Shown here: piece after piece, positions 6,326-63,361 of the stretch | Numbering within the stretch: position 1 is the stretch's first letter | How the letters are laid out: every line of letters begins with the position of its first letter | Translations under genes and position numbers: made by a program | Assembly: GCA_026388155.1 (NCBI GenBank) | Contig: JAPLKI010000016.1 | Span: forward strand, 198,705-262,704 | From: Elusimicrobiota bacterium | GTDB lineage: Bacteria > Elusimicrobiota > Elusimicrobia > Elusimicrobiales > UBA9959 | DNA: 64,000 nt | Reading direction: 5' to 3' | Notes under the pieces: generated by a model | Database searches by the model: none | What the model saw: the letters and a program-made list of their open reading frames with translations, nothing else | What the model was told of the DNA's origin: nothing

Positions 6326-6415
6326 GCTGGCGGGCTAGTACGCTGGTATGCTTTCCGAAGTCCCTGAATTAAGCATACAAGCATACTAGCTGGCAATCTT
6401 ACTCGCCTACTAGCC
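6326..6415. repeat. Word-palindrome element (GCTAGTAC / GCATAC words)
   Basis: GGGCTAGTACGCTGGTATGCTT...AAGCATACAAGCATACTAGCTGG...CCTACTAGCC between the aminotransferase and the dehydratase small subunit. Confidence 0.5.
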
Positions 6416-6455
6416 TATGGCTGTGCCGTACCAAGGGCTATGCCCATAAGACGGC

Positions 6456-6959
6456 CTAGCGGTTCACTGTTTCCATCAGTAATTTGCGTGTATAGGAGAC
6501 CAGTCCGCCGGCGTCTATAATAGCCTGGCGCGCCTTCGGGAGCGGCTCGATCGCGAACGATTCGCCGGACGTGCGGTTGAAAACCCTGCCCTGGGCTATT
6601 TCCAGTTCGTCGCCTTCCGCGGCTTCGATCGACGGACAGATCACTATGTCCAGGCCCAGGTTTATCGCGCTCTGCAGGAAAATACGCGCGATGTTCCTGG
6701 CCACTATCGTCAGCTCATGGCCCTTAAGGCAGGATACCGCCTGCTCGCGCGAGGAGCCGCAGCCGAAGTTGTTGCCGCCCAATATAACGCTTCCGGCGGG
6801 GATCCCCCCCGCCTTGAGTTTGCCGTTGAAAGCCGTGTTGTCGGCGAACGCGAACTGCGGTGTTTCGGTGGGCAGCACTGTCGCCATGAACCGGCCGGGA
6901 TAAATGATATCGGTGGACACGTCGTCGCCAACCTTTAGAACAATTTTTTTAGTAGCCAT
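6456..6959 (-). CDS. Aconitase-family dehydratase small subunit (LeuD/HacB-like)
   Basis: DDVSTDIIYPGRF...GGNNFGCGSSREQA swivel-domain motifs. Start at the ATG at 6959 with GGAGG upstream. Confidence 0.8.
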   Translation of the reverse strand: MATKKIVLKVGDDVSTDIIYPGRFMATVLPTETPQFAFADNTAFNGKLKAGGIPAGSVILGGNNFGCGSSREQAVSCLKGHELTIVARNIARIFLQSAINLGLDIVICPSIEAAEGDELEIAQGRVFNRTSGESFAIEPLPKARQAIIDAGGLVSYTRKLLMETVNR

Positions 6960-9654: not shown

Positions 9655-9850
9655 CTCCTTTAAGCGGCGTTCACGCCGCTGTCACAAGTTGCATGTCACA
9701 TGACAAGTTGCAAGTCTCATGGCCGTTTGTTAGCCATAGGCCCTGATACTGCACTACCATAGGCTTGTCTCAGGTCACAAGTGAAGAATGAGAGTTCGCT
9801 TGAAACTTGATACTAAGCTTGCTTGTGACCTGTGGCGTGTATCCTGTAAC
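9655..9850. repeat. Hairpin-rich spacer (GTCACAAGT words)
   Basis: GCGGCG-TTCA-CGCCGC hairpin, then repeated GTCACAAGT/GACAAGTTGCAAG words. CAGGTCACAAG (9771-9781) pairs with CTTGTGACCTG (9822-9832). Confidence 0.5.
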
Positions 9851-23621: not shown

Positions 23622-25466
23622 TTACAACTTGTGCGCGCTTCCGGAGCAGACGGGGACGCGCGCGGCGGCAAGGAGTTTTTTGTAGCGCGCAAGCGGTTCC
23701 TGAAGGCCTTTTATTGAAGCCTCCCAGAAGGCGGGGCTGCCGAGATCGGCGCCAAGGCTGCGCCGGGCCACGTTTTCCACGGTATCCGAGCCGGTCAGCC
23801 GCAGGAAGGCCTCGTATTTAGGCAGGAAGGACGGGCCTTCGGCCTTGAATTTTCTGAAAAGCGTGGCCGCAAGCAGGAAGCCGAAGGTGTAAGGAAAGTT
23901 ATAAAAAGACACGCCGGTCATATAAAAATGCAGTTTTGAGGCCCAGAACAGCGGGTCTTCCCCGCCTGGCTCAAGCGCGTCACCGAAAACGCGCCGCTGG
24001 GCGGAAGTCATAAGTTCTTTCAGACGCGCCACTGAAACTTCACCTTTGCGCCGTTCTTCGTGGAAGGCCTTTTCAAACTCAAAGCGCACGGTTATATCCA
24101 GTATGGTGACGGCCGCTCCGGTAAGGTATTCGTCCAGCATCATGAGTTTTTGCGTATCGCTTACTTCAGGGTCGGCCTGCACGCCCTCGGCCAGTATATG
24201 TTCGCCGAAAATGGAAGCTGTTTCGGCCAGCGTCATGGGGTATTCCCTGGCCCAGGGCCGCATTTCCTTCAGCAGGTGGCTGTGCCAGGCGTGCCCGATT
24301 TCGTGCGCTATCGTGTTCACGTCGCCCAGCGAACCGTTGAAGGTCATGTAAACCTGCTGCTCCCCGGTTAAATTTGAACCGGTACAAAAAGCGCCGGGCC
24401 GCTTGCCGCCGCGCGACTCGGACTCAAGGCGGCGATGCGCGAGGAAGTCCTTATAGTAGCGGGCGAGTGCCGGATAAGACTGATTAAAAGCCGCCGAAAC
24501 TTTGGCGGAGCCCTCTTCCCAGGTATAGAGTTTGGAATCTTTCATCGGCAGGGGAGCCTCGCGCTCGAAGAAGGCTATTCCCTTGCGGTCCATAGCTCCG
24601 GCTTTAACGCGCAGTATCTCGCGCACGGAATCTATGTTCCTGTATACCGCCGCGTACATGGCGTCAAGGGTGCCGCGCTTTATGCCGGAGCCGAAAAGCG
24701 CCTGATCCAAAAAATGTTTTATCCCGCGATGCCGGTAAAGGGTAAGCCGTGTGCCTGAAATGGCGTTTAAGGCGGCTGCGCAAGTGTCTTCTATGCCGGC
24801 CCAGGCAATGTTTCCCCCCTCAAAAGCGGCGCGGCCCACCTTGCGGTCCGCGTCCGACATAAGGGCGCGCCAGCGCGAGACGGGCAGGCGTTCTTTGCGC
24901 CCGTCGGGCCAGACCATGTCGAACTGAAGTTTGCCTGAAATTTTGCTGTAGAGCCGGTCCCAGGACTGAAAACCGTCCACGCCAAGGTCGGCCGCCAGTT
25001 TTTCCTCGGTCGGGCCCATGGTGTGTTTCGCCTGCTCGCGCACGCGAGCGAGGGAATGCCGCACTGGCGCGAGTTTTTCGCGCTTTGTAAAAGCGGTAAA
25101 AATATTTCCAGGGACATTCTTGAAAGCCCGCAGCAGGTCCACTCCGAATTTTGCATATTCCGCCGCGAGCGAGTATAGTTTTGCGCTTTCAGCTGAGTAT
25201 TCCTCATTGTCCGCGTGAGCGGATTCAAGGCAGGTTACGTAGGAAATAATATGGCCCAGCCGGGTTTCAACATTTTCTGCAGTAAGCAGAAGCTTTTCCC
25301 AGTCAGCGGCGGTTTTTGCCGAGAGCGGGGCCAGTTTTGCCGCTTTTTTCTGCAGCGCGGCCACGTCGGCCGCCAGTTTTTTCTTAAACTTGAGCATTTC
25401 AGGCCCGTTGAATTCAGGGAAATAACTTTTAAGGTCCCATCGCACTCCCTGCGTTATAATTGTCAT
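23622..25466 (-). CDS. pepF: Oligoendopeptidase F family (M3B) metallopeptidase
   Basis: HEIGHAWH zinc motif, 614 aa, overall M3 organisation. Confidence 0.85.
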   Translation of the reverse strand: MTIITQGVRWDLKSYFPEFNGPEMLKFKKKLAADVAALQKKAAKLAPLSAKTAADWEKLLLTAENVETRLGHIISYVTCLESAHADNEEYSAESAKLYSLAAEYAKFGVDLLRAFKNVPGNIFTAFTKREKLAPVRHSLARVREQAKHTMGPTEEKLAADLGVDGFQSWDRLYSKISGKLQFDMVWPDGRKERLPVSRWRALMSDADRKVGRAAFEGGNIAWAGIEDTCAAALNAISGTRLTLYRHRGIKHFLDQALFGSGIKRGTLDAMYAAVYRNIDSVREILRVKAGAMDRKGIAFFEREAPLPMKDSKLYTWEEGSAKVSAAFNQSYPALARYYKDFLAHRRLESESRGGKRPGAFCTGSNLTGEQQVYMTFNGSLGDVNTIAHEIGHAWHSHLLKEMRPWAREYPMTLAETASIFGEHILAEGVQADPEVSDTQKLMMLDEYLTGAAVTILDITVRFEFEKAFHEERRKGEVSVARLKELMTSAQRRVFGDALEPGGEDPLFWASKLHFYMTGVSFYNFPYTFGFLLAATLFRKFKAEGPSFLPKYEAFLRLTGSDTVENVARRSLGADLGSPAFWEASIKGLQEPLARYKKLLAAARVPVCSGSAHKL

Positions 25467-25561
25467 GTAATGTCCCTTTGCGGTAATCTTTCAGTACATA
25501 TAATACAATACTCCCCCGTCCGAAGAAAGTCCATAACAAAACAAAATCGCCCGACTGCTAC

Positions 25562-26040
25562 TAACTTCCGCAATGAGACCCCCTGCTGTTTAAGCGCGAT
25601 TTATGAAAACTTGGCGGGTGGTTATGTTGGGGGCGGTTGGTGTTAAATAAGTCGCGATTCACTATTTGGAGCGGGTGGCGGGGGAGCTGGGTTAGCAAAA
25701 CCGTCCGGAGGCCGAGACTTGCATAAGCGGCGAGGCCGAGGAACGGAAGGGCGGGCACGGTGAGGTCCGGCTTTAGGCCGTCTGATGGGCATAGCCCGTG
25801 AAACGGCACGGCCATAGGCCAGAGCGAAGCATAATTATGCTTCGCGTCCGGGCCGCAAGGGCGGAGGCGGTTCCCTGCGCAGCAGAACCGCCGAGCCGGG
25901 GTCGCGGAAAACAGCTATGCGGTTTATCCGTGACTGTCCCGACCCTGGTTTTGCGTTCCAGTCGCCCGACAGGACCCGCGAACCCTAAATTTGGCTGCGA
26001 GAACACCCAAAACCCAGCATGCTATCGTCGTGAGGACCTT
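25562..26040. other. Large GC-rich noncoding structured element A
   Basis: No credible ORF. Many hairpins, for example the 22-nt palindrome GCGAAGCATAATTATGCTTCGC at 25825-25846. Three collinear blocks are shared with element B in reverse orientation. Confidence 0.6.
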
Positions 26041-26061
26041 TTATTTTCGGAGAGGGCAATT

Positions 26062-27813
26062 TCAATCCAGGTAATCGTCTTTCTTTTTTTTCATGAAGCG
26101 GGCGAACCAGCTTCCCGGCGCCGGTTTTTTTTGCTGTTCCTGGCGGGGCTGTTGCCCTTGGCGTTGTCCGCCGGACTGCCATTCCGGACGCATGCGGCTT
26201 CCGCCCTGGCCGCGGTTGCGGCGGGCAGGCGGGCGCGGGCCGTGCGGGCGGCCATGGCTGCGCGGTTCGTCAAAATAAGGGGAAGCCTCAACACGGTGCC
26301 CGCCCGGCGCGGTAAACCTGAAATTTCCGCTTTGATCTCTGCCCCGCGCTTTTGGGGCAATCTGTTGGTGTGTGGGGTTATAAACGGGGCGACCAGCCCT
26401 GCTTTCTGTGCCAAAAGTGCGGGGCCTGCTCCGCTCGTTTGGAGCGTTATGCGGGCGTGTGTAATTATGGGCGGGGCCTGACTGCCGGCGATAAGGCGCC
26501 GCCGGGGTCCTTGTATTGTCCGAAGGCCTGCGCTGTCCCTGATATTGAGGAGCCCTTTTTTGAAAGTGGCTTTGTGCCGGCGGTCGCGGGGGATTGGGCC
26601 GCTGCGCAGGTTTTGAAACGGGCGCCGACGGATTTAATTGTATGACCGGGGCTTTGGGTTTCGCCGGAGTGCGGGCAATCGGAGCGAGTTTCGGCAGAGG
26701 CAAAACGGGCAGTATAGTCCGGAGAAGCCGTTCTATGGCTTTCAGGTCGCCGCGCTGGTCGGGCGTGGCGAAAGAAATGGCGTGGCCGGGCTGGCCCGCC
26801 CGGCCGGTGCGGCCTATGCGATGAACATAATTTTCATTTTCGTCCGGCAGGTCGTAGTTTATTACCAGCTCGATGCCGATAACGTCTATGCCGCGGGCGG
26901 CAATATCCGTGGCCACCAGCACGCGGTAGCGGCCAGTTTTAAATCCGTCCAGGGCCTCCTTCCGCTGGTTAAGGGAACGGTTGGAATGGATTTCCGCCGC
27001 GTTGTAGCCGCTTTCGCGGATGTTCTGCACTATCCTGTGAGCGCTGCGCTTGGTGCGCACGAAAAGAAGAACGCTGCCGCCGTATTGCCCTAAAATAGTG
27101 GTAAGCAGCGCCGCCTTTTCGGCTTTTGAAACCATGAAAACTTCCTGTTTTGTCTTTTCTATCGCGGTGCCAGGCCTGGCTACTTCCACTCTGAGAGGCA
27201 GTTTCATGCGGGCGGCGGCGAGCTTCATTATCCCGTCGGGCATGGTGGCCGAGAACAGCATTGTCTGGCGGTCTTTGGGCACCTGCTCAAGTATGCGGTT
27301 TATCTGCGGGGCAAAGCCCATGTCGAACATGCGGTCCGCTTCGTCCAGTATGAGCACGCAGACATCGTCAAGGCGCACGGTGCGCTGCTGCATGTGGTCG
27401 ATAAGCCGGCCGGGCGTGGCTATTATCACGCGCGGTTTTTTGCGCAGGTCCTGCTGCTGGCGGCTTATGGACTCTCCGCCGATTATCACGGAAGTCTGGA
27501 TACCCGCGAGCGAAGCGAATTGTTTAAACACCTCGTTTACCTGCAAAGCCAGTTCCCGGGTCGGGACAAGAACAAGGCCCCTGCCTTTAAGTCCCGCCAG
27601 GCGCTGAAGCACGGGTATGGCAAACGCTATGGTCTTGCCCGTGCCGGTCTGGGCGATGCCCACAAGATCCTTTCCTTCAAGGGCGGGCGGGATGGCTCTT
27701 GCCTGTATGGGCGTGGGCGTTTTAAACTTCAGCGCGTCAAGCGCGGCTAAAAGTTTAGGGGCTATTCCAAGCCCGTAGAAACCTGCTGAATCGTTTTTTT
27801 CGTTTTCGGTCAT
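26062..27813 (-). CDS. DEAD-box ATP-dependent RNA helicase with a ~215-aa R/P/Q/G-rich C-terminal tail
   Basis: Q-motif PTPIQ, AQTGTGKT, DEAD, SAT and HRIGRTGRAG. Start at the ATG at 27813. Confidence 0.9.
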   Translation of the reverse strand: MTENEKNDSAGFYGLGIAPKLLAALDALKFKTPTPIQARAIPPALEGKDLVGIAQTGTGKTIAFAIPVLQRLAGLKGRGLVLVPTRELALQVNEVFKQFASLAGIQTSVIIGGESISRQQQDLRKKPRVIIATPGRLIDHMQQRTVRLDDVCVLILDEADRMFDMGFAPQINRILEQVPKDRQTMLFSATMPDGIMKLAAARMKLPLRVEVARPGTAIEKTKQEVFMVSKAEKAALLTTILGQYGGSVLLFVRTKRSAHRIVQNIRESGYNAAEIHSNRSLNQRKEALDGFKTGRYRVLVATDIAARGIDVIGIELVINYDLPDENENYVHRIGRTGRAGQPGHAISFATPDQRGDLKAIERLLRTILPVLPLPKLAPIARTPAKPKAPVIQLNPSAPVSKPAQRPNPPRPPAQSHFQKRAPQYQGQRRPSDNTRTPAAPYRRQSGPAHNYTRPHNAPNERSRPRTFGTESRAGRPVYNPTHQQIAPKARGRDQSGNFRFTAPGGHRVEASPYFDEPRSHGRPHGPRPPARRNRGQGGSRMRPEWQSGGQRQGQQPRQEQQKKPAPGSWFARFMKKKKDDYLD

Positions 27814-27820
27814 AATTAAG

Positions 27821-27905
27821 CGGCAAATACTAAGCAAGCAAATAGCAAATAGTTAATAGTGAACATTAAAGTTTCTCCGGCTGCTACTATTCGCCATTTG
27901 CTTTT
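27821..27905. repeat. Word-palindrome element family W3, copy 2
   Basis: GCAAATAGCAAATAGTTAATAGTGAAC...CTACTATTCGCCATTTGC in the helicase 5' leader. Confidence 0.55.
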
Positions 27906-27926
27906 ATCTTTCCACCTGAACAGTTC

Positions 27927-28391
27927 CTAAGGGTTCAGTTTCCGCAGCAGCTCGGCGGTGACTATAAGGCGATAGCTGTTGAGAGCGGCCGGAGTGCTGT
28001 TGCGGCCCTTGGGGGACACTTTTTCAAAGCCGAAGCGCAAATGACAGCAGGTGGTCACTAAATTCCCGTCCTCGCAGGCGTACCATATTTCCCTGGCCCC
28101 GTTTTCAATGGCGTAGCGGATGCGCGACGCCGTAAGGGCCTTGGCTATGCCGCGCTCTCTCCATTCAGGTTTTACCCGCAGACCGTCCAGCGTCCACCGC
28201 GAGCGCTTTTTATAAACTACCGAGTGTCCCACTATACCGCCGCCGCAATAGGCCGCGAAATAGGCGTGGGGCATGGCAAGGGTGGGCTTTGGCGGAGGAG
28301 AATCGCGGTAAAAGGCGTCAAACTGCTTTTTCCACGCCGCGTCTTCCACGGCCACCCTGCGTATTTCCACTATTTCTTTTTCCGGTTTCAT
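27927..28391 (-). CDS. GNAT family N-acetyltransferase
   Basis: 154 aa. RVKPEWRERGIAKALTASRIRYAIENGAREIW matches the acetyl-CoA-binding R/Q-x-x-G-x-A pattern. Confidence 0.7.
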   Translation of the reverse strand: MKPEKEIVEIRRVAVEDAAWKKQFDAFYRDSPPPKPTLAMPHAYFAAYCGGGIVGHSVVYKKRSRWTLDGLRVKPEWRERGIAKALTASRIRYAIENGAREIWYACEDGNLVTTCCHLRFGFEKVSPKGRNSTPAALNSYRLIVTAELLRKLNP

Positions 28392-28451
28392 AACTTAAGT
28401 ATAGCGGCCCCCGGCCTTAAACGGCTGTGTCAACGGCTCTATTTTGCTTTG

Positions 28452-28732
28452 GGCCTTTAGGGCCCGCAACAGAATAATATGAGCATTTGGAGGCCCAGAT
28501 TTGAGCCGGATGCAAGGCGCGACGAGGGAGCATAGCGGTGTCTATGTGACTGAGGAGCAACGCGGCAGCCGGTTCAAAGATGGGCCTCCCCCTGGGGGCT
28601 GGCCGCTTTTGGGCTGCGCCTTTGCGGCGTTCCGCTAACGTACATGTAGTACGCGTCGCTTCACGCCGCTTCGGCTCGCTCCAAAATCGACTCAGCCAAA
28701 TGTCCATATTATTCTGTTGCGGGCCCCTTAGC
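28452..28732. mobile_element. MITE-like noncoding element C with ~32-bp terminal inverted repeats
   Basis: GGGCCCGCAACAGAATAATATGagCATTTGG (28460-28490) against CCAAATGtcCATATTATTCTGTTGCGGGCCC (28697-28727). GC-rich hairpin-rich interior with no ORF. Confidence 0.55.
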
Positions 28733-28775
28733 TCATGTGTAGTGGGGCCAACGGCTCTTGCGGCTCACTAAAAGG

Positions 28776-30080
28776 CTATTTTGTTCTGTACATGCTGCGG
28801 CGCTTCATGCGGAAGCTGGTGGGCAGGTTTTTGGGGCTTGCTCCGCCTCCGCCTCCCCTGAAACCTCCCCGCCCGCCGGTGTTCTTGGACTGGGGAGGCA
28901 GGCCTATCAGCTTCGCGGCTGGAATTTCGGGATGGGATACTATATTGATCTGCATTCTTATGAGTCGTTCAATATTGCGCAGGTCTGTTTCCTGTTCGGG
29001 GGTCACGAACGAAATGGCGTGGCCCGCCTTACCGGCGCGGCCGGTGCGGCCTATACGGTGCACATAGCTTTCATCGTCGTCGGGCAGGTCGTAATTCAGC
29101 ACTATTTCTATGCCTACTACATCTATGCCGCGCGCGGCTATGTCGGTGGCCACCAGAATGCGGTATTTGCCGGTTTTAAATCCCTCAAGGGCTTCTTTGC
29201 GCTGGCCCAGAGTGCGGTCGGAATGAATTTCCGCCACGCTGTGGCCCATGTCGCGGATATCGCGTGTGATGTCGCACGCGTTATATCGGGTGCGCACGAA
29301 CAGCAGCACGGTGCCCCAATACTTATCCAGCAGCTTTGAAAGCAAAGCCGGCTTGAGGCCGCGGTTGACCACATAAACTTCCTGCACGACATTTTCCACC
29401 ACGGTGCCGGAGCGGGCCACTTCCACGCGGGTGGGAAGCTTCATGTATTTGGCGGCGAGTTTCATTATTTCATCCGGCATGGTGGCGGAGAACAGCATGG
29501 TTTGGCGTTCTTTCGGCACATATTGCAGTATGCGGTTTATCTGAGGGGCGAATCCCATGTCGAACATACGGTCGGCTTCATCCAGAACCAGCACCTGAAC
29601 GTCATCCAGTTTTACCGTGTTCTGCTGAACATGGTCGAGCAGGCGGCCGGGAGTGGCCACAATAACGCGCGGTTTCTTTTTAAGGGCGGTAAGCTGGCCG
29701 GAGATGTTTTCCCCTCCTATAAGCACCACGGAGGTCATTCCCAGAAGCGGAGCGAATTGTTTATACACTTCGTTCACCTGTATGGCCAGTTCGCGCGTGG
29801 GCACAAGTATCAGCCCCTTGCCCGGCTTGGCGGCCAGCGTCTGTATCATCGGAATGGCGAACGCTATGGTTTTGCCGGTACCGGTCTGGGCTATGCCGAC
29901 CATGTCGTTGCCCGAACAGGCTATCGGTATGGCTTGTTTTTGTATGGGGGTGGGTTCCACGAATTTCATACGGTCAAGGGCTTCAAGGAGCTTCGGGGCT
30001 ATGCCCAGCCCGTAAAAGCCCGGAACCGGAACGGAAACCTTGGCTTTTCCTTTCATCATCGAGATAAATCTTTTAATCAT
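28776..30080 (-). CDS. DEAD-box ATP-dependent RNA helicase (paralog) with a short RGG tail
   Basis: Same motif set as the 26062 helicase. C-terminus is GGRGGFRGGGGG. Confidence 0.9.
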   Translation of the reverse strand: MIKRFISMMKGKAKVSVPVPGFYGLGIAPKLLEALDRMKFVEPTPIQKQAIPIACSGNDMVGIAQTGTGKTIAFAIPMIQTLAAKPGKGLILVPTRELAIQVNEVYKQFAPLLGMTSVVLIGGENISGQLTALKKKPRVIVATPGRLLDHVQQNTVKLDDVQVLVLDEADRMFDMGFAPQINRILQYVPKERQTMLFSATMPDEIMKLAAKYMKLPTRVEVARSGTVVENVVQEVYVVNRGLKPALLSKLLDKYWGTVLLFVRTRYNACDITRDIRDMGHSVAEIHSDRTLGQRKEALEGFKTGKYRILVATDIAARGIDVVGIEIVLNYDLPDDDESYVHRIGRTGRAGKAGHAISFVTPEQETDLRNIERLIRMQINIVSHPEIPAAKLIGLPPQSKNTGGRGGFRGGGGGASPKNLPTSFRMKRRSMYRTK

Positions 30081-30145
30081 ATATTACATGATTATACATA
30101 ATTTCGTGAGGATGGTTATGGGAGGCTGATTTGCCGATTTGCGGG

Positions 30146-31366
30146 CTAAAAGGCAAGCGAAGCGCCGGCGTAGCCGTAAAAACCTGAGTGGGAAGGATAT
30201 CCCAGCAGATAACCTTTTGTCTTATATGCGGCCTTTGCGCTCAGCCCGAGCGAGCGGTATAGCGGCATATCCGCCTTTAACTGGAAATTCCGCCCGCTCG
30301 CGCGCAAAGGCAGCTGCGGATCTTTTGCCCCGGGAAAGGTCCAGATATCCAGCGCCGGGGTCAGCTTAAGGCCTGCCAGATCAACAGGGCCGAATTCCGC
30401 TCCGCCCCCTTTTATTTCACCTTCGGGGGTTTTGCCTGTCCGGTAGTAAAGCGAAAGCAGTCTGCCCTTTCCCCCGAGGAAGATATAATAATAGTTCTCA
30501 GGGCCCGAAGGTGTCAGGCTGGCTTTAGGCGCGAAAGCGGCCCCGATCCCCCCTCCCAGGGGGAGCATGGGCGCCGGGGCGTCGCGCCCGCCTGTCAGGA
30601 AATAATGGGCCCACACGTAAAACAGCCAATAAAAACAGGGGTCGAACTTCATGGCGCGGTCCAACGACCGGCGGCTTTTGCCGGCATAGCTTTCAGTGAG
30701 ACCCACTGACGCGCCGTAACGGGTCCTGAAATTACGCAGCCATGAGGTTCCGTCTCCGCCCTCAGTCCTTGCGGGATCCAGCCCGTCCTTCAGATAGGAT
30801 AGGTCCGAATAGGCGGCGCGAAAAATACCGGAATCGTAAACTTTCATCCTGCCCGAGCGGTATATCTCCTTTTCGGCGTCAAGCAGGTAAAGCTGGCTGG
30901 CTCCCGCGCCGGCGGCCAGCCAGAGCTGCTTTTGCTCATAAGTTCCAAGCGCCGTAAGTTTGTCGGAAATGGCATAACTGGGGCGGGGATCGGAAACGAA
31001 CCAGGACCAGCCGTATCGGGCGTCTTTGTAGCCGAATTCCCGTATAACCGAGCCGTGACCGTAATACTCGTGTATTATTTTTTCCGGAGAGGGCAGCAGC
31101 AATATTGAGGCGGGCAGGTTGAGGGGCCGCAGGAACCAGCGGGAATGCACGCCCGCTTTCAGGGCGGCGTAATCATAGCCGTCGTTAAGCAGGGCTTCGG
31201 CGGCCGACAGGGTAACCGCGCCGGATTCCATGGAACCATTACCGGACGGGTCGTAGACAAAACGATAGGTTTGGGAAGCGCCGGCGGGCGGGAGCCCCAA
31301 GAAAACGAGCAGGAGCGCCGCCCCGATGGCCGCTGACATTCTACGGCATTTTTCCTGCCCGCTCAT
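30146..31366 (-). CDS. Outer-membrane beta-barrel-like hypothetical protein
   Basis: Signal peptide after the ATG at 31366 (or 31339). Alternating beta pattern and a C-terminal ...YAGASLAF ending in Phe. Confidence 0.5.
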   Translation of the reverse strand: MSGQEKCRRMSAAIGAALLLVFLGLPPAGASQTYRFVYDPSGNGSMESGAVTLSAAEALLNDGYDYAALKAGVHSRWFLRPLNLPASILLLPSPEKIIHEYYGHGSVIREFGYKDARYGWSWFVSDPRPSYAISDKLTALGTYEQKQLWLAAGAGASQLYLLDAEKEIYRSGRMKVYDSGIFRAAYSDLSYLKDGLDPARTEGGDGTSWLRNFRTRYGASVGLTESYAGKSRRSLDRAMKFDPCFYWLFYVWAHYFLTGGRDAPAPMLPLGGGIGAAFAPKASLTPSGPENYYYIFLGGKGRLLSLYYRTGKTPEGEIKGGGAEFGPVDLAGLKLTPALDIWTFPGAKDPQLPLRASGRNFQLKADMPLYRSLGLSAKAAYKTKGYLLGYPSHSGFYGYAGASLAF

Positions 31367-31382
31367 GCGTTCATTATCCGGG

Positions 31383-32798
31383 TTAAGCCAGATTAAAGGT
31401 TTCCCCCATTTGCGGACAAAAAACATTTTTAAAACCTTCTTCCCCCAGTTTGGCGGACAGAGCGCCGCGCGCCTCATCGTCGCCGTGCACCAGGAAAATT
31501 TTTTTCGGCGCGGGCTTCATGGCTTTTATAAAAGCAAGCAGATCGTTCTTGTCGGCGTGGGATGAGAAACTGTGCAGGGTTTCCACATTGGCCCACACTT
31601 CGTGTTCAAGGCCGAAAATCCTGACCTTTGCCGCGCCGTCCTGCAGGCGGCGGCCCAAAGTGCCTTCCGCCTGATAGCCGACCAGCAGCACCGTGGTGTT
31701 TTCTTTTTCTATGTTGTTGCGCAGGTGATGCAGCACGCGCCCGCCTTCGCACATCCCCGAGGCGGAAATTATGATCATTGGGCCGGGCTTATAGTTAAGC
31801 GTCTGCGACTCCTCCTTGCTGCGCAGGTAGCGTATATAATCAAAGCCGAAAGGGTCGCCGTCCGCGCGGGCGTAATCGCGGAACTTTTCGTCAAAGCAAA
31901 AATCCTCCCGGTGTTTGTTGAAGATCTCGGTGAGGCTTGTCGTCATGGGGCTGTCAACGTATACGGGGATATCCGGCGCGCCTTTAGAACGGCGCAGCTT
32001 GTCCAGTATGAAGATTATTTCCTGGGAACGCTCAAGCGCGAAGCTGGGAATTATTATTTTCCCGTTTTCCTTTACGGCGCGCCTTATCGCATCGGCAAGT
32101 TTGTCTTCAGCGTCGCCAAGCGGCTCGTGCAGGCGGTCGCCGTAGGTGCTTTCTATAACCAGGCAGTCCACGCCTTCCGGCGGCACGGGCGCCTCCATAA
32201 GGAGTGTTTCCGGGCGGCCAAGATCCCCGGTGTAAAGCAGGCGCCGCCGCCCCGCGGGGCCGTCAATGTCAAGCTGCGACATGGCCGAGCCCATTACATG
32301 GCCGGCGTTAAGAAATCTGGCGGATACGCCCGGGATCGGCGCGAACTCCGCGTTACACTCGATCGGGCGCAGATGAGACAGCGCTTTATCGGCGTCTTCC
32401 TCAGTGTAAAGCGGTTCTATCGTCAGGCCTTCGGCTGCGTGTATTTTGTTGTAGAACTGCGCGTCCCCCTCCTGCAGGCGGGCGGAATCGGCCAGCATTA
32501 TGGCGGTAATCTCGGCGGTGGCGGGGGTGGCGTATAGCGGGGCGTCGCAGCCGTTGCGGTAAAGAAGGGGCAGCAGGCCGCAGTGGTCCACATGGGCGTG
32601 GCTTAGCATGACCGCGTCCACCGAGGCGGGCGGAAAACGGAAAGTGCGGTTCTTTGAGTCCGCGTCCGAGCGGTGGCCCTGGAACATGCCGCAGTCAAGC
32701 AGCAGGCTTTTGCCGTTAACTTCCAAAAGGTGCCGTGAGCCGGTAACTTCCCCCGCCGCGCCGTGAAAACTTATAGTGAGCTTATTGTCCGTGGTCAT
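31383..32798 (-). CDS. Beta-CASP family MBL-fold ribonuclease
   Basis: HAHVDHCG metallo-beta-lactamase motif, and C-terminal SSHAD ... LVHGD beta-CASP motifs, 471 aa. Confidence 0.8.
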   Translation of the reverse strand: MTTDNKLTISFHGAAGEVTGSRHLLEVNGKSLLLDCGMFQGHRSDADSKNRTFRFPPASVDAVMLSHAHVDHCGLLPLLYRNGCDAPLYATPATAEITAIMLADSARLQEGDAQFYNKIHAAEGLTIEPLYTEEDADKALSHLRPIECNAEFAPIPGVSARFLNAGHVMGSAMSQLDIDGPAGRRRLLYTGDLGRPETLLMEAPVPPEGVDCLVIESTYGDRLHEPLGDAEDKLADAIRRAVKENGKIIIPSFALERSQEIIFILDKLRRSKGAPDIPVYVDSPMTTSLTEIFNKHREDFCFDEKFRDYARADGDPFGFDYIRYLRSKEESQTLNYKPGPMIIISASGMCEGGRVLHHLRNNIEKENTTVLLVGYQAEGTLGRRLQDGAAKVRIFGLEHEVWANVETLHSFSSHADKNDLLAFIKAMKPAPKKIFLVHGDDEARGALSAKLGEEGFKNVFCPQMGETFNLA

Positions 32799-32866
32799 TT
32801 TTTCCTGCCTTTGGTGCCGGTGGTCTCTGACGCTGTCATCCGGCCAATACTTGTGTAGGTGCCGTA

Positions 32867-33376
32867 TCAGGGCCTATGGCCGTCGGACGGCCTCCTGTAA
32901 AAAACATTGACCGGGGCAATTGTCTTGCGCATTAATAGTTCGTCATGGCCCCGCACGATAAAATCCGCCAGGCGCCCGCATTGCCGGTAGCCCAGCCGCT
33001 TGTAAAACCTTATGGCTTTTTTATTAAAGGAAGAGACGCAGAGAAAAACGTTGGGCGCGCGCGAGAATATTTTTTCTTCCGCGTGTTCCATCATCTGGGC
33101 GCCCAGTCCCCGGTCGCGGAAGGTCTCTGCCACAAAAAGCGATTGTATATAGCCGCGGAAGGTGCCGTACATGGTTATTATCGCAAGGCCGGCGATCTCA
33201 CGCTCGGAGCGCGCTATGTAAACCTCGCGGAACGGAGCGGTCATGGAATTAAGGCAGGCGCGGTAGCCGCGGCCTAGTTTCCGCCAGGGGTCCGAGGCCG
33301 CCATAAGGCGCGCCGCGCGCTTTAAAACCTGCATGGATGAAGTTTTTGAGATTTTGATCTGGGCTTTAACCGGCAT
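32867..33376 (-). CDS. GNAT family N-acetyltransferase
   Basis: FVAETFRDRGLGAQMMEHAE acetyl-CoA-binding motif. Start at the ATG at 33376. Confidence 0.7.
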   Translation of the reverse strand: MPVKAQIKISKTSSMQVLKRAARLMAASDPWRKLGRGYRACLNSMTAPFREVYIARSEREIAGLAIITMYGTFRGYIQSLFVAETFRDRGLGAQMMEHAEEKIFSRAPNVFLCVSSFNKKAIRFYKRLGYRQCGRLADFIVRGHDELLMRKTIAPVNVFYRRPSDGHRP

Positions 33377-33431
33377 AACTAAATGATACAAAATTACTCA
33401 TCTGGGCTGGATTAGTGTAGGTTTTAATAAG

Positions 33432-33631
33432 GAGAGCCGGCGGGTTTTCCGCGCGCTCCTTTTAGGGTTTTAAGTCCGGGGTCTGGAGCAAATCCCTATC
33501 ATTAGGGACGGCGAGGACCATTCAAGCCGGACCGCTGTGCCGGGCCGGCGCGTTCCGGAGCTGGCGGAAGACCCCGGACTTCCTCATTGCAAAACCCGGT
33601 CTTGGAGCGCGCGGAAAACCCGCCGGCTCTC
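33432..33631. repeat. Long extended hairpin element E (28-bp perfect closing stem)
   Basis: GAGAGCCGGCGGGTTTTCCGCGCGCTCC (33432-33459) is the exact reverse complement of 33604-33631. A nested AAGTCCGGGGTCT/AGACCCCGGACTT stem lies inside. Confidence 0.65.
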
Positions 33632-33677
33632 TTAATTGCTGACTTTTTCAGCAGCCCCAATTTAGTAGAATTTTGAA

Positions 33678-35017: not shown

Positions 35018-35056
35018 GAGTGCAGGCTGAAGGCTGAAGGTAAAAAATATAACCCG

Positions 35057-35464
35057 AAATCCTTAGTTAACTAAGGATTTCGGGTTAACAGTTTTCCCGG
35101 CTTCCGCAGGCCCCCTAAAAATCACCGTCTCTTCATTAGCAACCCTCTTGAAATCCGGGTGCCTCACGGGTAAGAGGGAGGAATGTTTTTTATCCGGCAG
35201 CCGGCCTTACGGGTTTGCGGGGCCTGCCGCCGGACCGGAACGCGGGGACAGCCGTCCACACCGTGGCCGGCTTCCATGACTCACCTTCGGCGCTTGCGTA
35301 AGCCTCAGGTTCGCGAAGGCCCCGCTAACCCGGCTCCGGCGGCACCCGCTCCATTTATTCAAGGGAGAAACTTGTTGTAAAAAAGGGAAGAGTCAAAGCG
35401 CCGGCGCCCGTTCCCGCAAGATACGCGGGCGTAAGGGTGCCTCATTGCGGAAGTCAGGAGACTT
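35057..35464. mobile_element. GC-rich noncoding element B (homolog of A, opposite orientation), bracketed by 27-bp direct repeats
   Basis: Direct repeats AAGGCTGAAGrTAAAAAATATAACCCG at 35030-35056 and 35465-35491. Termini CTTCCGCA (35101) and TGCGGAAG (35447) are inverted. No ORF is conserved with A. Confidence 0.6.
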
Positions 35465-35501
35465 AAGGCTGAAGATAAAAAATATAACCCGGGAAGACAA
35501 T

Positions 35502-35532
35502 AAAAAAAGGCCCCGTTAAAAGGGCCTTTTTT
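35502..35532. terminator. Bidirectional rho-independent terminator (the original carboxypeptidase terminator)
   Basis: A7-GGCCC-loop-GGGCC-T6. Confidence 0.65.
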
Positions 35533-35550
35533 ATTGCGCGCGTTACGCTT

Positions 35551-35702
35551 TAGTTGAGCAGCTTATACGGGTTGTCGGTCACGCTTAGCATGTAGAGCGC
35601 GGCTTTGATGTTGGCGGAAACAGCGTGGTCTATTATCGCGACTCCCGGATAGAAGCCGTTACCTTCAAGCTCGGTGGTGAAGGCGAATATTCCCGCCGCG
35701 GC
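35551..35702 (-). pseudogene. Orphan 3' fragment (about 50 codons plus stop) of the M14 carboxypeptidase gene
   Basis: 152 bp nearly identical to 40411-40562, with 2 mismatches in the 145-bp core and more at the stop-proximal edge. It keeps its own stop (…YKLLN* versus …YKLLQ*) and terminator. Confidence 0.8.
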
Positions 35703-40204: not shown

Positions 40205-40409
40205 TAGTGATTTCCCCCCACTAAACATCCATTTTTATGCTTTGGTGTTAAGCATTATGGAATTACCGTAAACCGTATCACTTAATATATTATTATGTCA
40301 AGACGATTTTAATCACAGGTTATGTTTGCAAGAATTAATGGTGTAAATCTTTGCCACCGGGAAACGGAAATACAGGCAAGTCCGGCGGACAGGCAGGAAT
40401 GATAATTTT

Positions 40410-41735
40410 TTATTGCAGCAGCTTATACGGGTTGTCGGTCACGCTTAGCATGTAGAGCGCGGCTTTGATGTTGGCGGAAACAGCGTGGTCTATTATCGCG
40501 ACTCCCGGATAGAAGCCGTTGCCTTCCAGCTCGGTGGTGAAGGCGAATATTCCCGCCGCGGCGTATGCCCAGTCGCAGGTGTCGCCGGTGGCCACATACA
40601 GATCGCTGGCCTGCTCGGGCTTGTAACCGGTAAAACCGGCCATAGCCGCGCCCATCTTCTCAAAAACCTGCCTGTCCCTGGCGTTTTCCACAGGCACAGC
40701 TTTGCCCCCCCAGGGGTAAAGCAAAAGGCTGGAATAGGAGTGGTAACTCATCAGGGTTTTAAGATTCCCTCGGGCTTCCGCGAATTTTTTTACGGCCTGC
40801 GTTTCCGGCTCGGAAAAGGCCGATGGGCCGCAATAAGTTTCAGCCGACGGGGAATGCGAGGCGCCGCCCTTACACCAAAGCGCGTCGTAGTTGCGGTTCA
40901 GGTCCACGCCGATGGATTTATCCGGGTTGACGCGCGTGTTTTTGCGCTGCCAGCGGTATTTGCCGGCGGCTATATCATACTCCACCCCGTCGCCGTTAAG
41001 CATGGGAACAATGTATATGTCCAAAGCGGACAGATAGCTTTTAATATCGGCGTCGTTCCTGTGTTCAAGCAAATAGGCAGCGAACAATAAAGGAACCTCG
41101 TTGGAAAGATGCTCGCGGGCGTGATGGTTGCCTATGTAAAAAGCGCCGGGCTTTGAGCTTGCGGCGTCGCCTTTGGCAGAAGTGTTAAGGCGCAGACACC
41201 ATATGTCGCGGCCTTCCACGGTTTTGCCGATGGAAAAAAGTGAAGCGATATCCTGGTTGGCGGCGGCCAGCTGTTTGAGCACATCTGCCGTTTCTTTGTA
41301 GTTATGGTAAGCGGAGTCGGCGGCGGGAAAATCTTTAAGGTATTGTCTGGCATAGTCGTATATGCTTTGCCTGCTCAGGACCACATAACCCTTTTCTGAA
41401 AGTGTGTCCAGCCCCTGTTTATGAATAAAACCTGAAACAGTTTTGTCATTGACTTCCGCTATATCCAGGCCGATTTCAAGAAGCGCGGTGCGCGCGTATT
41501 TATCGGAGGCCGAAACGGTCACCCAGAACCTGTCGTCGTTTTTAAGGTCTTCCAGGGCGGCCATTTCAACCCCGGGTTCCGGCAGGCTGATGTCTTTTAA
41601 TATCCCGCCTGTAAGCCGGTTCAGAAGCTGTTCAAAGGAGACATTCACCGCCTTCTCCGGAGACCTGTCCCCGGCGGCCATTAATGTTCCGGCCCAGAAT
41701 ACCGGAAGAATAATATAAATTGACAATTTTTTCAT
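40410..41735 (-). CDS. Secreted M14 family zinc carboxypeptidase
   Basis: GNHHAREHLS (HxxE zinc ligands) and SYHSYSSLLLYPWG, with a signal peptide. Confidence 0.85.
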   Translation of the reverse strand: MKKLSIYIILPVFWAGTLMAAGDRSPEKAVNVSFEQLLNRLTGGILKDISLPEPGVEMAALEDLKNDDRFWVTVSASDKYARTALLEIGLDIAEVNDKTVSGFIHKQGLDTLSEKGYVVLSRQSIYDYARQYLKDFPAADSAYHNYKETADVLKQLAAANQDIASLFSIGKTVEGRDIWCLRLNTSAKGDAASSKPGAFYIGNHHAREHLSNEVPLLFAAYLLEHRNDADIKSYLSALDIYIVPMLNGDGVEYDIAAGKYRWQRKNTRVNPDKSIGVDLNRNYDALWCKGGASHSPSAETYCGPSAFSEPETQAVKKFAEARGNLKTLMSYHSYSSLLLYPWGGKAVPVENARDRQVFEKMGAAMAGFTGYKPEQASDLYVATGDTCDWAYAAAGIFAFTTELEGNGFYPGVAIIDHAVSANIKAALYMLSVTDNPYKLLQ

Positions 41736-59187: not shown

Positions 59188-59728
59188 TAGACAAAAGCGG
59201 GGACTGATGCGGGACAAGCGGCGATATAGTGACCGCAGAGAATACCTTATAGAAGCTGTCAGAAAGCGGAGAAGGAAAATCCGGGAAATGGCGGTGGATT
59301 ATAAGGGCGGCAAATGCCGGCTGTGCGGTTACAATAAGTGCAGCGAAGCGCTTGAGTTTCATCATCTTGACTCTTCCGTTAAAGACTTTGGGATATCACA
59401 CAAGGGATATACCAGAGGCTGGAAAAGGGTCAAAATGGAACTTGATAAATGCGTAATGCTGTGCGCCAATTGTCACAGAGAGGTTCACGCCGGAAAGCAG
59501 CTTCTACGGGAAACCGTAGTTGAAAAACCAGGTGAACTCAGGGAAACCCTTAAAAAATAAGGGCAATCCTGAGCCAAGCCGCGAACAACATCGCGGAAGG
59601 TGCAGAGACTATCCCGAAAGGGAGTACTGTCCTTCGCAGTTAAGGATGGGAAGCGCCTGGGTCCGTAAAGAGCGAGTGTTCCACGGATATGATATAGTCC
59701 AAGCTCTGAAGCAATTCAGAGGCTCTTG
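59188..59728 (+). ncRNA. Group I intron, IC3-like (tRNA-intron type)
   Basis: Follows a U and ends in G. Core blocks CTCAGGGAAACC, GGCAATCCTGAGCCAAGCC and GGAAGGTGCAGAGACTA, plus GAAA- and GCAA-tetraloop hairpins, as in cyanobacterial tRNA-Leu introns. Confidence 0.85.
59207..59560 (+). CDS. HNH homing endonuclease (intron-encoded)
   Basis: CRLCGY...LEFHHLD...N...CVMLCANCHREVH HNH/zinc motif, 117 aa, lies wholly within the intron. Confidence 0.8.
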   Translation: MRDKRRYSDRREYLIEAVRKRRRKIREMAVDYKGGKCRLCGYNKCSEALEFHHLDSSVKDFGISHKGYTRGWKRVKMELDKCVMLCANCHREVHAGKQLLRETVVEKPGELRETLKK

Positions 59729-62984: not shown

Positions 62985-63359
62985 ATGGTAAAAAATATTC
63001 AGGAATATTACCAATGCATACTGGACAACCTTACCGGCGGACTTGTAAGCGTGGACATGAGCGGAAAGGTGGTTTATATAAATCCCACCGCCGGCCGGAT
63101 ACTTCACCTTGAAAGTGTTCCCGGCTGCCTGGATAAGAAATACGACTCCGCTTTTGAAAGTTTCCCCGCGCTCAGGGATGTTATACGCGAAACCATTGAA
63201 ACCGGAAAAACCGTGCGGCGCGCTGAGATTTCCATCATGCACGCCAGCACCCCCCTTATAATCGGTTACAGCACCATGCAAGTGCGCGGCGCCGACGGCA
63301 AGGAAATGGGAGTTACCGTTATTTTTCAGGACATTTCTTTTGTGGCCGCAAAAAAATAG
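62985..63359 (+). CDS. Stand-alone PAS domain protein
   Basis: YQCILDNLTGGLVSVDMSGKVVYINPTAGRILHL is a typical PAS N-terminal segment, 124 aa. Confidence 0.6.
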   Translation: MVKNIQEYYQCILDNLTGGLVSVDMSGKVVYINPTAGRILHLESVPGCLDKKYDSAFESFPALRDVIRETIETGKTVRRAEISIMHASTPLIIGYSTMQVRGADGKEMGVTVIFQDISFVAAKK

Positions 63360-63361
63360 CC

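Follow-up and report, generated by a model that had tools for sequence, protein, structure and literature searches.

A predicted branched RNA of about 145 nt, matching no Rfam 15 model, on small dispersed cassettes of Elusimicrobia

The window analyzed here, the whole stretch of 64,000 nt, contains two related intergenic elements in inverted orientation. Element A lies in the gap between pepF and a helicase gene and element B lies beside an endonuclease I gene; the genes facing the two elements are convergent in both cases. An earlier note, made from the sequence alone, had described A and B as homologous members of a family of large noncoding elements. Comparison of the pepF-helicase gap with the whole window by blastn recovered the three shared blocks of that note: 25667-25765 matched 35353-35256 on the minus strand (99 nt, 70.7%, E 1.4e-6, covering blocks 2 and 3), and 25558-25584 matched 35460-35434 (27 nt, 85%, block 1). 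A fourth collinear block, absent from the earlier note, links 25953-25985 with 35243-35211 (33 nt, 79%). The homology is therefore real, but its proposed extent of 400-500 nt is not, as the conserved unit is a core of about 145 nt. The features are listed below, with predicted RNA helices named P1 to P5 and the two members of head-to-head pairs called type 1 and type 2.

25558..26071, plus strand: element A, whole cassette (right boundary approximate), made up of left terminus, AT-rich upstream region, type-1 RNA core (interrupted) and 3' flank
25564..25577, plus strand: block 1 (ACTTCCGCAATGAG), cassette left terminus, 14/14 identical to 35454-35441
25667-25984, plus strand: core of A, split by 172 nt in a hairpin loop
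25667..25762, plus strand: 5' part of the A core, with the 5' strands of P1, P2 and P3, the P4 hairpin and the 5' strand of P5 up to the loop (…GGGCACGGTG)
25763..25934, plus strand: nested insertion in the P5 loop of A, 172 nt, two dispersed repeats unrelated to the RNA
25935..25984, plus strand: 3' part of the A core, with the 3' strands of P5, P3, P2 and P1 (TGTCCCGACCCTGGTTTTGCGTTCCAGTCGCCCGACAGGACCCGCGAACC)
35030..35056, no strand: first copy of the direct repeat flanking B (AAGGCTGAAGGTAAAAAATATAACCCG), 26/27 identical to 35465-35491 (E 2.6e-9)
35050..35087, minus strand: intrinsic-terminator-like hairpin, a 17-bp stem and a T run, downstream of B on the RNA strand
35057..35464, minus strand: element B, whole cassette, bounded on either side by a direct repeat
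35212..35353, minus strand: core of B, an intact 142-nt type-1 RNA
35465..35491, no strand: second copy of the direct repeat flanking B, counterpart of 35030..35056
35490..35600, minus strand: empty target site for the pair cassette of the sister genome L080, uninterrupted in the window (by alignment)

We scored the window with a covariance model built solely from B and the copies of other genomes. It found A in two parts (59.3 and 17.8 bits), B at full length (129.9 bits, E 2.5e-25) and nothing else significant. A weak match at 63281-63424 was rejected because it sits in apparent coding sequence. Element E (33426-33638), which the earlier note had tied to B through the string GCGTTCCGG..GGCGG, scored 9.8 bits (E 2.4), and the string is not kept in the homologue of E in L022. 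Rfam assigned no family to E, which belongs to a separate hairpin-repeat family and is not counted as a member of the A/B family.

The 5' part of the A core, which gave the 59.3-bit match, was aligned with L050, L010, L007 and L058 and is 98.6% identical to L010 across 74 nt. The alignment places the insertion gap between GGGCACGGTG and TGTCCCGACCC. Beyond the gap, the 3' part pairs with the 5' part again, GCAAAACC with GGTTTTGC being one instance. The hairpin-dense middle of A, previously read as diverged homologous sequence, consists instead of two unrelated dispersed repeats that are nested in the core as an insertion. The first is a k-loop-like 47-nt repeat (25776-25822) that recurs at 6410-6458, 9721-9764 and 32859-32893 and in L007, L039 and L082, with no RNA copy at these places. 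The second is a 112-nt repeat (25824-25934) holding the perfect 22-nt palindrome (25824-25845) and the GGCGGTTC/GAACCGCC hairpin, both correctly noticed before; it also occurs outside RNA copies at L050 563-674 (92%) and L025 8034-8147 (79%). Other mini-repeats are plentiful in the same genomes.

The left end of A aligns with that of B and also with the 3' flanks of the type-2 copies in L080 and L012; the reverse complement of block 1 aligns with these flanks as ..GGGTGyCyCA..TsCGGAAGTCAGGA. Block 1 appears to be the left terminus of the cassette and, at the same time, what is left of the 3' end of a type-2 half since lost. By eye, the right flank of A (GAGAACACCCAAAACCC...GGGCAATTTCAATCCAGG) looks like the consensus of the B-type 3' flanks, which ends in CGGAAGTCAGG; the formal alignment is weak here. 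As two mini-repeats sit inside its P5 loop and neither a terminator nor a flanking direct repeat is detectable, A is probably decaying. Logan contigs carrying pepF all end within the 5' part of A, at or just before the conserved core.

The B core shares 92% identity with L080 683-823 and 90-93% with the copies of L008, L009 and L012. In the minimum free energy fold of 35040-35465 (z = -5.9), the left terminus CUUCCGCA (35452-35445) pairs with UGCGGAAG (35108-35101). B looks functional, because its core is intact and followed by a terminator-like hairpin; alternatively or additionally, this hairpin may terminate the convergent endonuclease I gene. No sigma-70-like promoter was found upstream of A or B.

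Pattern scans and the covariance model yielded 58 family matches (54 model matches at E<=0.01 in related loci, A, B and two in L080), so that copies beyond the window are numerous in other Elusimicrobia. They come from four to six genome loci, all in Elusimicrobia MAGs, and about 40 metagenome loci. The pattern scan of viral_contigs gave 0 matches, and blastn of B against plasmid and phage collections gave none. Within the collections searched, this candidate RNA is found only in Elusimicrobia, with several copies per genome.

Comparison with known RNAs agreed with the earlier view that no known class can be assigned. With gathering thresholds, Rfam 15 (4227 models) detected only a group I intron (59445-59721) in the whole window; at E<=10 there was nothing plausible on A and nothing overlapping the B core on its strand. 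A search of 18 related loci returned only a group II intron and tRNA, and ARAGORN predicted no tRNA or tmRNA genes in the window. 6S RNA is a rod of ~180 nt with a large central bubble mimicking an open promoter; we rejected this identity, as our consensus runs as a continuous rod to a three-way junction, has no central bubble and lacks an Rfam match. Y RNA binds Ro/Rsr via a conserved bulged stem and its gene adjoins rsr. The Rfam models Y_RNA and YrlA gave no match, and no TROVE-domain gene is among the neighbours of the copies. The elements contain no credible ORF, and our literature search on Elusimicrobia ncRNA or RNA motifs found nothing relevant. A and B are, on this evidence, copies of a predicted structured RNA family without a counterpart among the Rfam 15 models.

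The family core spans 141-146 nt, with pairing 5' and 3' ends. In the consensus fold, a long closing rod of stacked helices P1-P3 is capped by a tight three-way junction with hairpins P4 and P5. The rod has conserved asymmetric internal loops (UUA opposite GU, plus an AGG bulge). P4 has a UU bulge, ends in a tri- or tetraloop and contains tandem G·A pairs, which resemble a kink-turn signature in most members, and the tip of P5 is CACGGUGUG; some members have GNRA-type tips. Peripheral inserts are optional and occur at fixed places in the fold, such as the hairpin GGGUGGAGC...CUGGGCCC. An outer helix P0 is not general, being present in only ~7/50 copies. Loops and junctions are conserved more than stems.

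Covariation analyses supported this fold. Paired cells reached 93.5%, versus 34-48% in slid controls, and compensatory changes were found in 22/48 pairs (209 cells). The observed covariation score was reached by 0/500 shuffles. RNAalifold independently recovered the rod and the junction. The compensatory changes are maintained even between deeply diverged subfamilies that come from different genera-level MAGs. Stem variation is compensatory and not codon-like, which bears out the earlier suggestion that conservation is at the RNA or DNA level rather than the protein level. The suggested dispersed structured family (MITE, REP/BIME-like or ncRNA) likewise exists, but its core is a branched RNA of 141-146 nt and no REP/BIME-type palindrome. 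G·U pairs (110 cells) far outnumber A·C pairs (18 cells), and this fixes the strand of the RNA as plus for A and minus for B. In principle, selection for a structure that tolerates G·T wobble might operate on single-stranded DNA in the course of transposition instead of on RNA.

Kink-turns occur in box C/D RNAs, U4 snRNA, SAM-I and T-box. P4 of most type-1 members (UCCG-GA-GCCU / AGGC-GAG-GA-CGGG) has the canonical kink-turn signature NC-stem-GA-C-stem / C-stem-GAG-GA-NC-stem, at the level of sequence only. However, the motif is not universal: the P4 of B, L008, L009 and L012 has GAG-UG and lacks the signature, with UG or UC replacing the second GA in the B subfamily. We know of no L7Ae-type partner for the Elusimicrobia RNA.

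Type-1 and type-2 copies form head-to-head pairs, 32-380 nt apart, in L012, L032, L036, L066, L057, L022 and L080, and a further pair was recognized by eye in L017. The partners are only ~50-55% identical and differently looped, so no REPIN-like hairpin forms between the halves. In L080 the two 5' ends are just 32 nt apart; this spacing is tight for two promoters.

Divergently encoded RNA pairs are known from type I toxin-antitoxin loci such as tisB/istR-1, shoB/ohsC and zor/orz, and the Elusimicrobia units share with them two head-to-head RNAs from a unit of ~0.5 kb that is repeated in the genome. We considered a similar module, in which a tiny ORF (MGHPKAKRLSS...) just after the type-1 core would be repressed by the complementary 3' tail of the type-2 RNA. 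An ATG, TTG or GTG at the same post-core position opens a short ORF in L008, L012, L080, L009, L032 and B, and the type-2 3' tail (UUUGGGUGUCCC) is complementary to codons 2-5. The partners of B-type units thus have short trans complementarity (10-13 nt), and the boxes co-vary between units (TGAGGCACCC twice in B, GGGACACCCAAA twice in L012 and L080). Yet the complementarity is confined to one subfamily, and the ORF is no convincing toxin: its length varies from 9 to 33 or more codons, substitutions among L008, L012 and L080 fall mostly at codon positions 1 and 2 with no third-position bias, and the peptide, being basic and hydrophilic, does not resemble membrane toxins. Other subfamilies do not have the ORF, and A has no start codon. 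The module would also leave unexplained the covarying 145-nt fold common to both RNAs, which are homologous structured RNAs, unlike the partners of type I loci. We give it very little chance of being correct.

Analysis of the genomic neighbourhood revealed no association with particular genes. The downstream gene is convergent with the RNA in 24 cases and co-oriented in 22, and all-vs-all clustering of 268 flanking ORFs gave no recurrent neighbour family, just synteny of near-identical contigs and generic matches to response regulators and NiFe-hydrogenase. The lack of a conserved neighbour and of an orientation bias argues against a leader or riboswitch. Some copies do directly precede a co-oriented gene with a Shine-Dalgarno sequence (L015, L044, L029), but orientation is random overall, the downstream genes are unrelated, and A and B both face convergent genes. 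A decayed protein gene would account for the mechanical ORFs that overlap A, but not for stem variation that is compensatory instead of codon-like. The chance that the elements are cis-regulatory leaders, or remnants of a protein gene, is close to negligible.

Neither a transposase nor a reverse transcriptase adjoins the copies (~45 units), and no autonomous transposase-encoding partner with the same termini was found near any of them. The 443-aa ORF at 30146-31477 was rejected as a transposase; it has no Pfam match, is unrelated to the other 443-aa ORF (aminotransferase-like) and is missing in L080.

Relatives of the window revealed both presence/absence polymorphism and target duplications, two features for which the earlier note had proposed comparing sister genomes. 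Locus-specific direct repeats of 27 nt (B), ~33 nt (L080), 24 nt (L032), 27 nt (L017) and ~35 nt (L012) flank the units, and were clear in just 5 of ~45 units. The window is collinear with the left junction of the L080 pair cassette to its end (..GCGCCAATAG) and with the right junction from AAACTGACGG on, and L080 has a ~33-bp duplication around a 455-nt insert. Element A is missing from the syntenic intergenic region of L080 (pepF 88% identical); a clean empty site for A is not definable, as the pepF-helicase region of L080 is alignable at its edges only.

The cassette ends are heterogeneous. Terminal inverted repeats (CTGACTTCCG...CGGAAGTCAG) mark the B-type units, one subfamily ends CCAAATCCTCCGC...GCGGAGGATTTGG, and L017 has neither; in general, flanking inverted repeats are significant in few subfamilies only. 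The terminus lies 0-7 nt from the direct repeat at the better-defined cassette end and 1-77 nt from it at the other. Because the termini vary among subfamilies and their distance to the repeat ranges over 0-77 nt, defined-end transposition is not demonstrated. An unrelated 4.7-kb insertion in the window is likewise flanked by long direct repeats (154 bp), so the duplications may reflect a host process rather than one specific to the element.

These data could also describe a MITE- or REPIN-like DNA repeat, mobilized by a transposase encoded elsewhere, in which the fold is a single-stranded DNA structure or functionless and the RNA has no cellular role. Like ERIC, Correia/NEMIS, RUP, REP/BIME and REPIN repeats, the units are short, protein-less, multi-copy, intergenic and dispersed in either orientation, among other mini-repeats that are abundant in the same genomes. 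They also share presence/absence polymorphism, flanking duplications with empty sites, terminal inverted repeats in some members (the B-type units) and head-to-head doublets reminiscent of REPINs. The duplications of 24-35 bp are atypical for MITEs (2-10 bp) but have a precedent in IS1202-group elements, which are 1.5 kb long and have a TnsB-like transposase, 5'-TGT...ACA-3' ends, 24-26-bp inverted repeats and target-site duplications of 16-28 bp (PMC10132070). The cassettes resemble that group in the long duplications, but not in size, and its transposase, TGT/ACA ends and inverted repeats were not seen in them; TGT/ACA is absent beside the direct repeats of B, L080, L032, L017 and L012. The core, moreover, is not a simple palindrome but a rod of 145 nt with a three-way junction, whose loops and junctions are better conserved than its stems and whose compensatory changes persist across deeply diverged subfamilies. 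REP, BIME and REPIN units are palindromes of 20-40 nt that associate with a RAYT transposase and whose doublets fold into one long hairpin, whereas this one is a branched unit of 141-146 nt with no RAYT-like or other transposase linked to it. With termini that differ among subfamilies, no transposase beside any of ~45 units and pair halves too dissimilar for a REPIN-like hairpin, we regard a purely DNA-level repeat as unlikely.

Retroposition would offer another route of spread. Here, a reverse transcriptase encoded at another locus (e.g., in a group II intron) would copy the transcript of a SINE-like element into DNA and insert it at staggered nicks, with the RNA fold as the recognition handle. 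This agrees with the variable duplication length (24-35 bp), the lack of terminal repeats conserved across subfamilies, the strand-specific, RNA-level selection and the better definition of one cassette end (0-7 nt versus 1-77 nt from the duplication). The genomes also contain group II introns, one of which lies inside an RNA copy in L025. However, two divergent RNA genes and a spacer per unit are awkward for a single RNA intermediate, a poly-A or other 3' tail is absent, and no copy is linked to a reverse transcriptase. We also know of no precedent for SINE-like retroposition in bacteria, and consider it very improbable here. A selfish element made of RNA only, or a prokaryotic analogue of SINEs, is a somewhat better but still quite doubtful idea: in this novel type of bacterial mobile element, the homologous RNA pair would be the only cargo and would itself direct the insertion that duplicates 24-35 bp. 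The RNAs would serve as guides, as ribozymes or as handles recognized by an enzyme that is either the host's own or encoded in trans.

The reading we prefer, with a probability of roughly 0.6, is that A and B are small protein-less cassettes restricted to Elusimicrobia whose selected payload is the structured RNA of 141-146 nt. The RNA would be transcribed from the given strand (plus in A, minus in B) as a stand-alone gene with its own AT-rich upstream region. Complete cassettes would carry the two diverged paralogues head-to-head; A and B would have lost the type-2 core and kept its terminal ~25 nt. Insertion of a cassette would take place between genes and leave 24-35 bp of target duplicated. 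Of this reading, our analyses show the homology, the fold and its strand, the dispersed, paired, multi-copy arrangement and the insertion polymorphism with long duplications. We infer transcription of the RNA, and also a role in trans in which it would be a scaffold for proteins (RNP) and not work through base pairing; protein binding is suggested by conservation in junctions and internal loops, together with helices that covary and peripheral hairpins that come and go. Our best guess at the function is a trans-acting, protein-binding RNA on a mobile cassette.

Such an RNA would join the orphan structured ncRNAs of bacteria (raiA, ROOL, GOLLD, HEARO and the phylum-named motifs). Like these, it is a stand-alone intergenic RNA in the range of 100-600 nt, defined by covariation and lineage-restricted, with variable peripheral hairpins and no function assigned at discovery. 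It differs from them in riding an insertable cassette with long target duplications, in its usual head-to-head arrangement with a diverged paralogue and in matching none of the 4227 Rfam 15 models.

Hardly any experimental work exists on Elusimicrobia, and the literature we searched contained no lineage-specific RNA for them. For this strongly covarying RNA of 145 nt, our analyses supply an alignment together with a consensus structure and a covariance model. The cassette repeats break short-read assemblies and should be modelled when Elusimicrobia MAGs are binned and annotated. If the RNA is needed for the spread of the cassettes, it would represent a new mobility mechanism with unusually long target duplications. 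If it is instead the RNA of a trans-acting RNP, it would point to an unrecognised cellular machine in Elusimicrobia.

We compared the 595-nt gap between pepF and a DEAD-box helicase gene with the whole window using blastn.

23622-25466, minus strand, pepF
26062-27837, minus strand, DEAD-box helicase (Pfam)

Three collinear matches on the opposite strand bore out the inverted homology that the earlier note had proposed, from three shared blocks, between element A in this gap and element B near 35 kb. The best (25667-25765 versus 35353-35256; 99 nt, 70.7%, E 1.4e-6) spans blocks 2 and 3 of that proposal, a second (25558-25584 versus 35460-35434; 27 nt, 85%) is its block 1, and a third (25953-25985 versus 35243-35211; 33 nt, 79%) is an extra block absent from its list. 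The A/B similarity is real and exceeds chance.

At gathering thresholds, the sole Rfam 15 match in the whole window was a full-length group I catalytic intron at 59445-59721, plus strand (RF00028, 82.9 bits, E 1.4e-19). Searching Rfam at E<=10 gave no credible match on A or on the core of B, and ARAGORN detected no tRNA or tmRNA in the window. The earlier failure to place the elements in a known class is therefore upheld: the A/B family is real, has no Rfam 15 match, and no mention of it was found in the searchable literature.

A degenerate pattern from block 2, GGAGCGGGTG-N5-GGAGC-N-GGGTTAGC, was scanned against one genome per GTDB species and matched six loci with unrelated flanks, all within four Elusimicrobia MAGs. 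A looser pattern matched 67 metagenome stretches, of which about 40 are genuine, and gave no match in viral contigs; blastn of B against plasmid and phage collections likewise yielded nothing. The conserved core has a sharp start at TGGAGCGGGTG and runs to CCCGCGAACC (141-146 nt), and the AT-rich sequence upstream is conserved among close relatives only. R1, a covariance model of this core, had 54 matches at E<=0.01 in related loci, many of which carry two or three copies; A, B and two copies in the sister genome L080 bring the total to 58. No copy was found in about 69 kb of sequence from four other relatives (L081-L084). The family is restricted to Elusimicrobia, and these matches, together with a covarying fold, confirm the idea of a dispersed, multi-copy family of structured elements.

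From 6 distinct members, and later from 35, RNAalifold recovered a long closing helix together with two distal hairpins. The full structure was drawn by hand on a 144-nt member and scored on the 35-sequence alignment. There, 93.5% of cells were paired, versus 34-48% when partners were slid by 1-3 columns, and two-sided changes occurred in 22 of 48 pairs (209 cells). None of 500 shuffles reached the observed covariation score. Helix P3 is GCAAAACC/GGUUUUGC in A, L007 and L050 and GCGGGGCC/..CCCCGC in B, L008 and L012, and in P5 GGCCAC/GUGGCC interchanges with GGGCAC/GUGCCC among members. G·U cells far outnumber A·C cells (110 versus 18), so selection acts on the given strand, plus for A and minus for B. 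A strand-specific fold is strongly supported. Its 5' and 3' ends pair in P1-P2-P3, with conserved UUA/GU and AGG irregularities, and beyond P3 lies a tight three-way junction bearing P4 and P5. In P4, tandem G·A pairs occur together with a UU bulge and a variable loop of three or four nucleotides; the P4 sequence is a canonical k-turn signature in most members, but B's subfamily lacks this signature. The P5 tip is CACGGUGUG. Extra hairpins occur at three fixed sites (the P4 tip, the P4-P5 interval and the P5 tip), a pattern that functional structured RNAs typically show.

An unfiltered run of R1 over the window gave no significant match besides A and B. B is an intact member (129.9 bits over its full length at 35212-35353, minus strand); A, an interrupted member, was matched in two pieces (59.3 bits at 25667-25804 and 17.8 bits at 25857-25984). 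Alignment with L050, L010, L007 and L058 revealed A to be an otherwise normal copy whose P5 loop, between GGGCACGGTG and TGTCCCGACCC, holds a 172-nt insertion (25763-25934). This insert consists of two other dispersed mini-repeats. The 22-nt palindrome and other hairpins described in the gap are present, and the hairpin density there comes mostly from these nested repeats. A terminator-like hairpin with a 17-bp stem lies downstream of B on its own strand; none was found for A.

47-nt hairpin repeat, window: 25776-25822, plus strand
47-nt hairpin repeat, window: 6410-6458, minus strand
47-nt hairpin repeat, window: 9721-9764, plus strand
47-nt hairpin repeat, window: 32859-32893, minus strand
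47-nt hairpin repeat, outside the window: L007 2064-2097; L039 5879-5925; L082 13950-13983
112-nt repeat: 25824-25934; L050 563-674 (92%); L025 8034-8147 (79%)

The first is a dispersed intergenic hairpin of about 47 nt, GGCCGUCUGAUGGGCAUAGCCCnUGAUACGGCAC.GCCAUAGGC, with one copy nested within A's P5 loop. Its symmetric UGAU/UGAU internal loop, equivalent to tandem G·A pairs, resembles a box D'/C' k-loop, and no Rfam family matches it. The 112-nt repeat opens with the perfect palindrome GCGAAGCATAATTATGCTTCGC and includes a GGCGGTTC...GAACCGCC hairpin; its L050 copy, in another MAG, lies outside any RNA gene.

Element E (33426-33638; 213 nt), which the earlier note had linked to B, is not a relative of it, as R1 scores it at 9.8 bits (E-value 2.4) and it has homologues of its own. 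It carries a terminal stem of about 30 bp and has a fold z of -10.8 on either strand. A homologue (L022 793-977) shows compensatory changes and occupies the spacer separating two RNA copies, and a fragment in L010 (199-239) precedes an A-like copy by about 100 nt. E forms a repeat family of its own and tends to be found alongside the cassettes carrying the RNA.

L080 is fully syntenic with the window from pepF (88% identical protein) to endonuclease I. Its pepF-helicase spacer is 262 nt and has no RNA copy, so A is polymorphic. L080 carries a pair of diverged RNA paralogues, type 1 and type 2, just past the stop codon of an M14 peptidase gene, as a 455-nt insert bracketed by a duplication of about 33 bp, and the window holds the uninterrupted version of this exact site. 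Besides this presence/absence polymorphism, target-site duplications, also suggested as a check, were found as direct repeats of 24-35 bp at five units: L080 and, each locus-specific, B (27 nt, 26/27, E 2.6e-9), L032 (24 nt), L017 (27 nt) and L012 (about 35 nt, 29/35).

The paired layout is recurrent, with a high-scoring type-1 copy head-to-head with a diverged type-2 copy (46-92 bits) and 32-380 nt separating their 5' ends. Type 2 shares its architecture and P1 region with type 1 but differs in the loops. The 3' flanks of both RNAs in B-type units finish with CGGAAGTCAG, giving the unit inverted termini, and within these units a 10-13-nt box present twice in direct orientation renders the two RNAs complementary in their 3' tails. 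The sequence of this box varies between units (TGAGGCACCC in B, at 35444-35435 and 35166-35157; GGGACACCCAAA in L012 and L080). Block 1 is this cassette terminus: read as the reverse complement, it lines up with the 3' flanks of the type-2 copies in L080 and L012, indicating that A and B lost the type-2 core and kept its end. Subfamilies differ in their termini, which also lie at varying distances from the direct repeat.

These comparisons establish insertion polymorphism with long duplications and a multi-copy, dispersed, paired arrangement. The leading alternative to a transcribed RNA is a MITE or REPIN-like element at the DNA level. A SINE-like retroelement is less likely. Neither a transposase nor a reverse transcriptase was found near the RNA copies. 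IS1202-group elements generate 16-28-bp duplications (PMC10132070), but their TGT/ACA ends are missing from the RNA cassettes. A 154-bp direct repeat (35549-35702 and 40409-40562, 96.8%), the 3' end of an M14 peptidase gene, brackets an unrelated 4.7-kb segment encoding a zinc-ribbon protein, a PorP/SprF-like protein and a 968-aa Kelch-repeat protein. This segment, a large insertion missing from the syntenic L080 locus, has a very long target duplication, so the length of such duplications may be a host property.

Two further observations concern individual copies. In L025 (64-435, minus strand) an RNA copy (299-435) is broken in the P3 3' strand by a group II intron that begins GTGCG directly after ..GTTTTCG (RF02001 match at 64-236, 136 bits). 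Among six Logan contigs with identical pepF (L001-L006), five end at about 25674, inside A's conserved 5' block, and L002 ends about 55 nt earlier (about 25619), shortly before the core. Such breaks in the assembly would be expected if these samples contained additional near-identical copies.

Flanking ORFs share no common family, save for synteny of near-identical contigs. The next downstream gene is convergent in 24 cases and co-oriented in 22, and both A and B face convergent genes, which rules out a leader or riboswitch. A cis-regulatory or protein-coding origin of the RNA is excluded. A type-I-TA-like module is also less likely, since the short ORF after B-type cores varies in length and lacks a codon-like substitution pattern. 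Between A and B (26062-32798) lie two DEAD-box helicases, a beta-CASP/RMMBL ribonuclease and two GNAT acetyltransferases, with endonuclease I next. This gene order is syntenic in L080 with or without the RNA, so the closeness of RNA-metabolism genes is probably coincidental. A 443-aa ORF (30146-31477, minus strand) between a DEAD-box helicase and the beta-CASP RNase gene has no Pfam match; at the same site in L080 it is missing and a short spacer of about 80-160 nt stands.

Two GGGCGGG boxes, 29-31 nt apart (CCGGGCGGG-N22-GGGCGGGAACA), lie about 40-100 nt upstream of some RNA copies.

Paired GGGCGGG boxes: L017 689-735
Paired GGGCGGG boxes: L025
Paired GGGCGGG boxes: L074
Paired GGGCGGG boxes: L012 2533-2577
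Paired GGGCGGG boxes: L032 2640-2680

Of 52 upstream regions, 14 contain GGCGGG, versus 6% of random 110-nt windows, and the boxes may be a promoter or regulator site. We infer that the RNA is transcribed as a stand-alone unit, based on AT-rich sequence upstream, the terminator-like hairpin that follows B and an outer helix, P0, found in a subset of copies. The invariant nucleotides in junctions and internal loops, the covarying helices and the optional peripheral hairpins suggest that this RNA would act in trans and bind protein.
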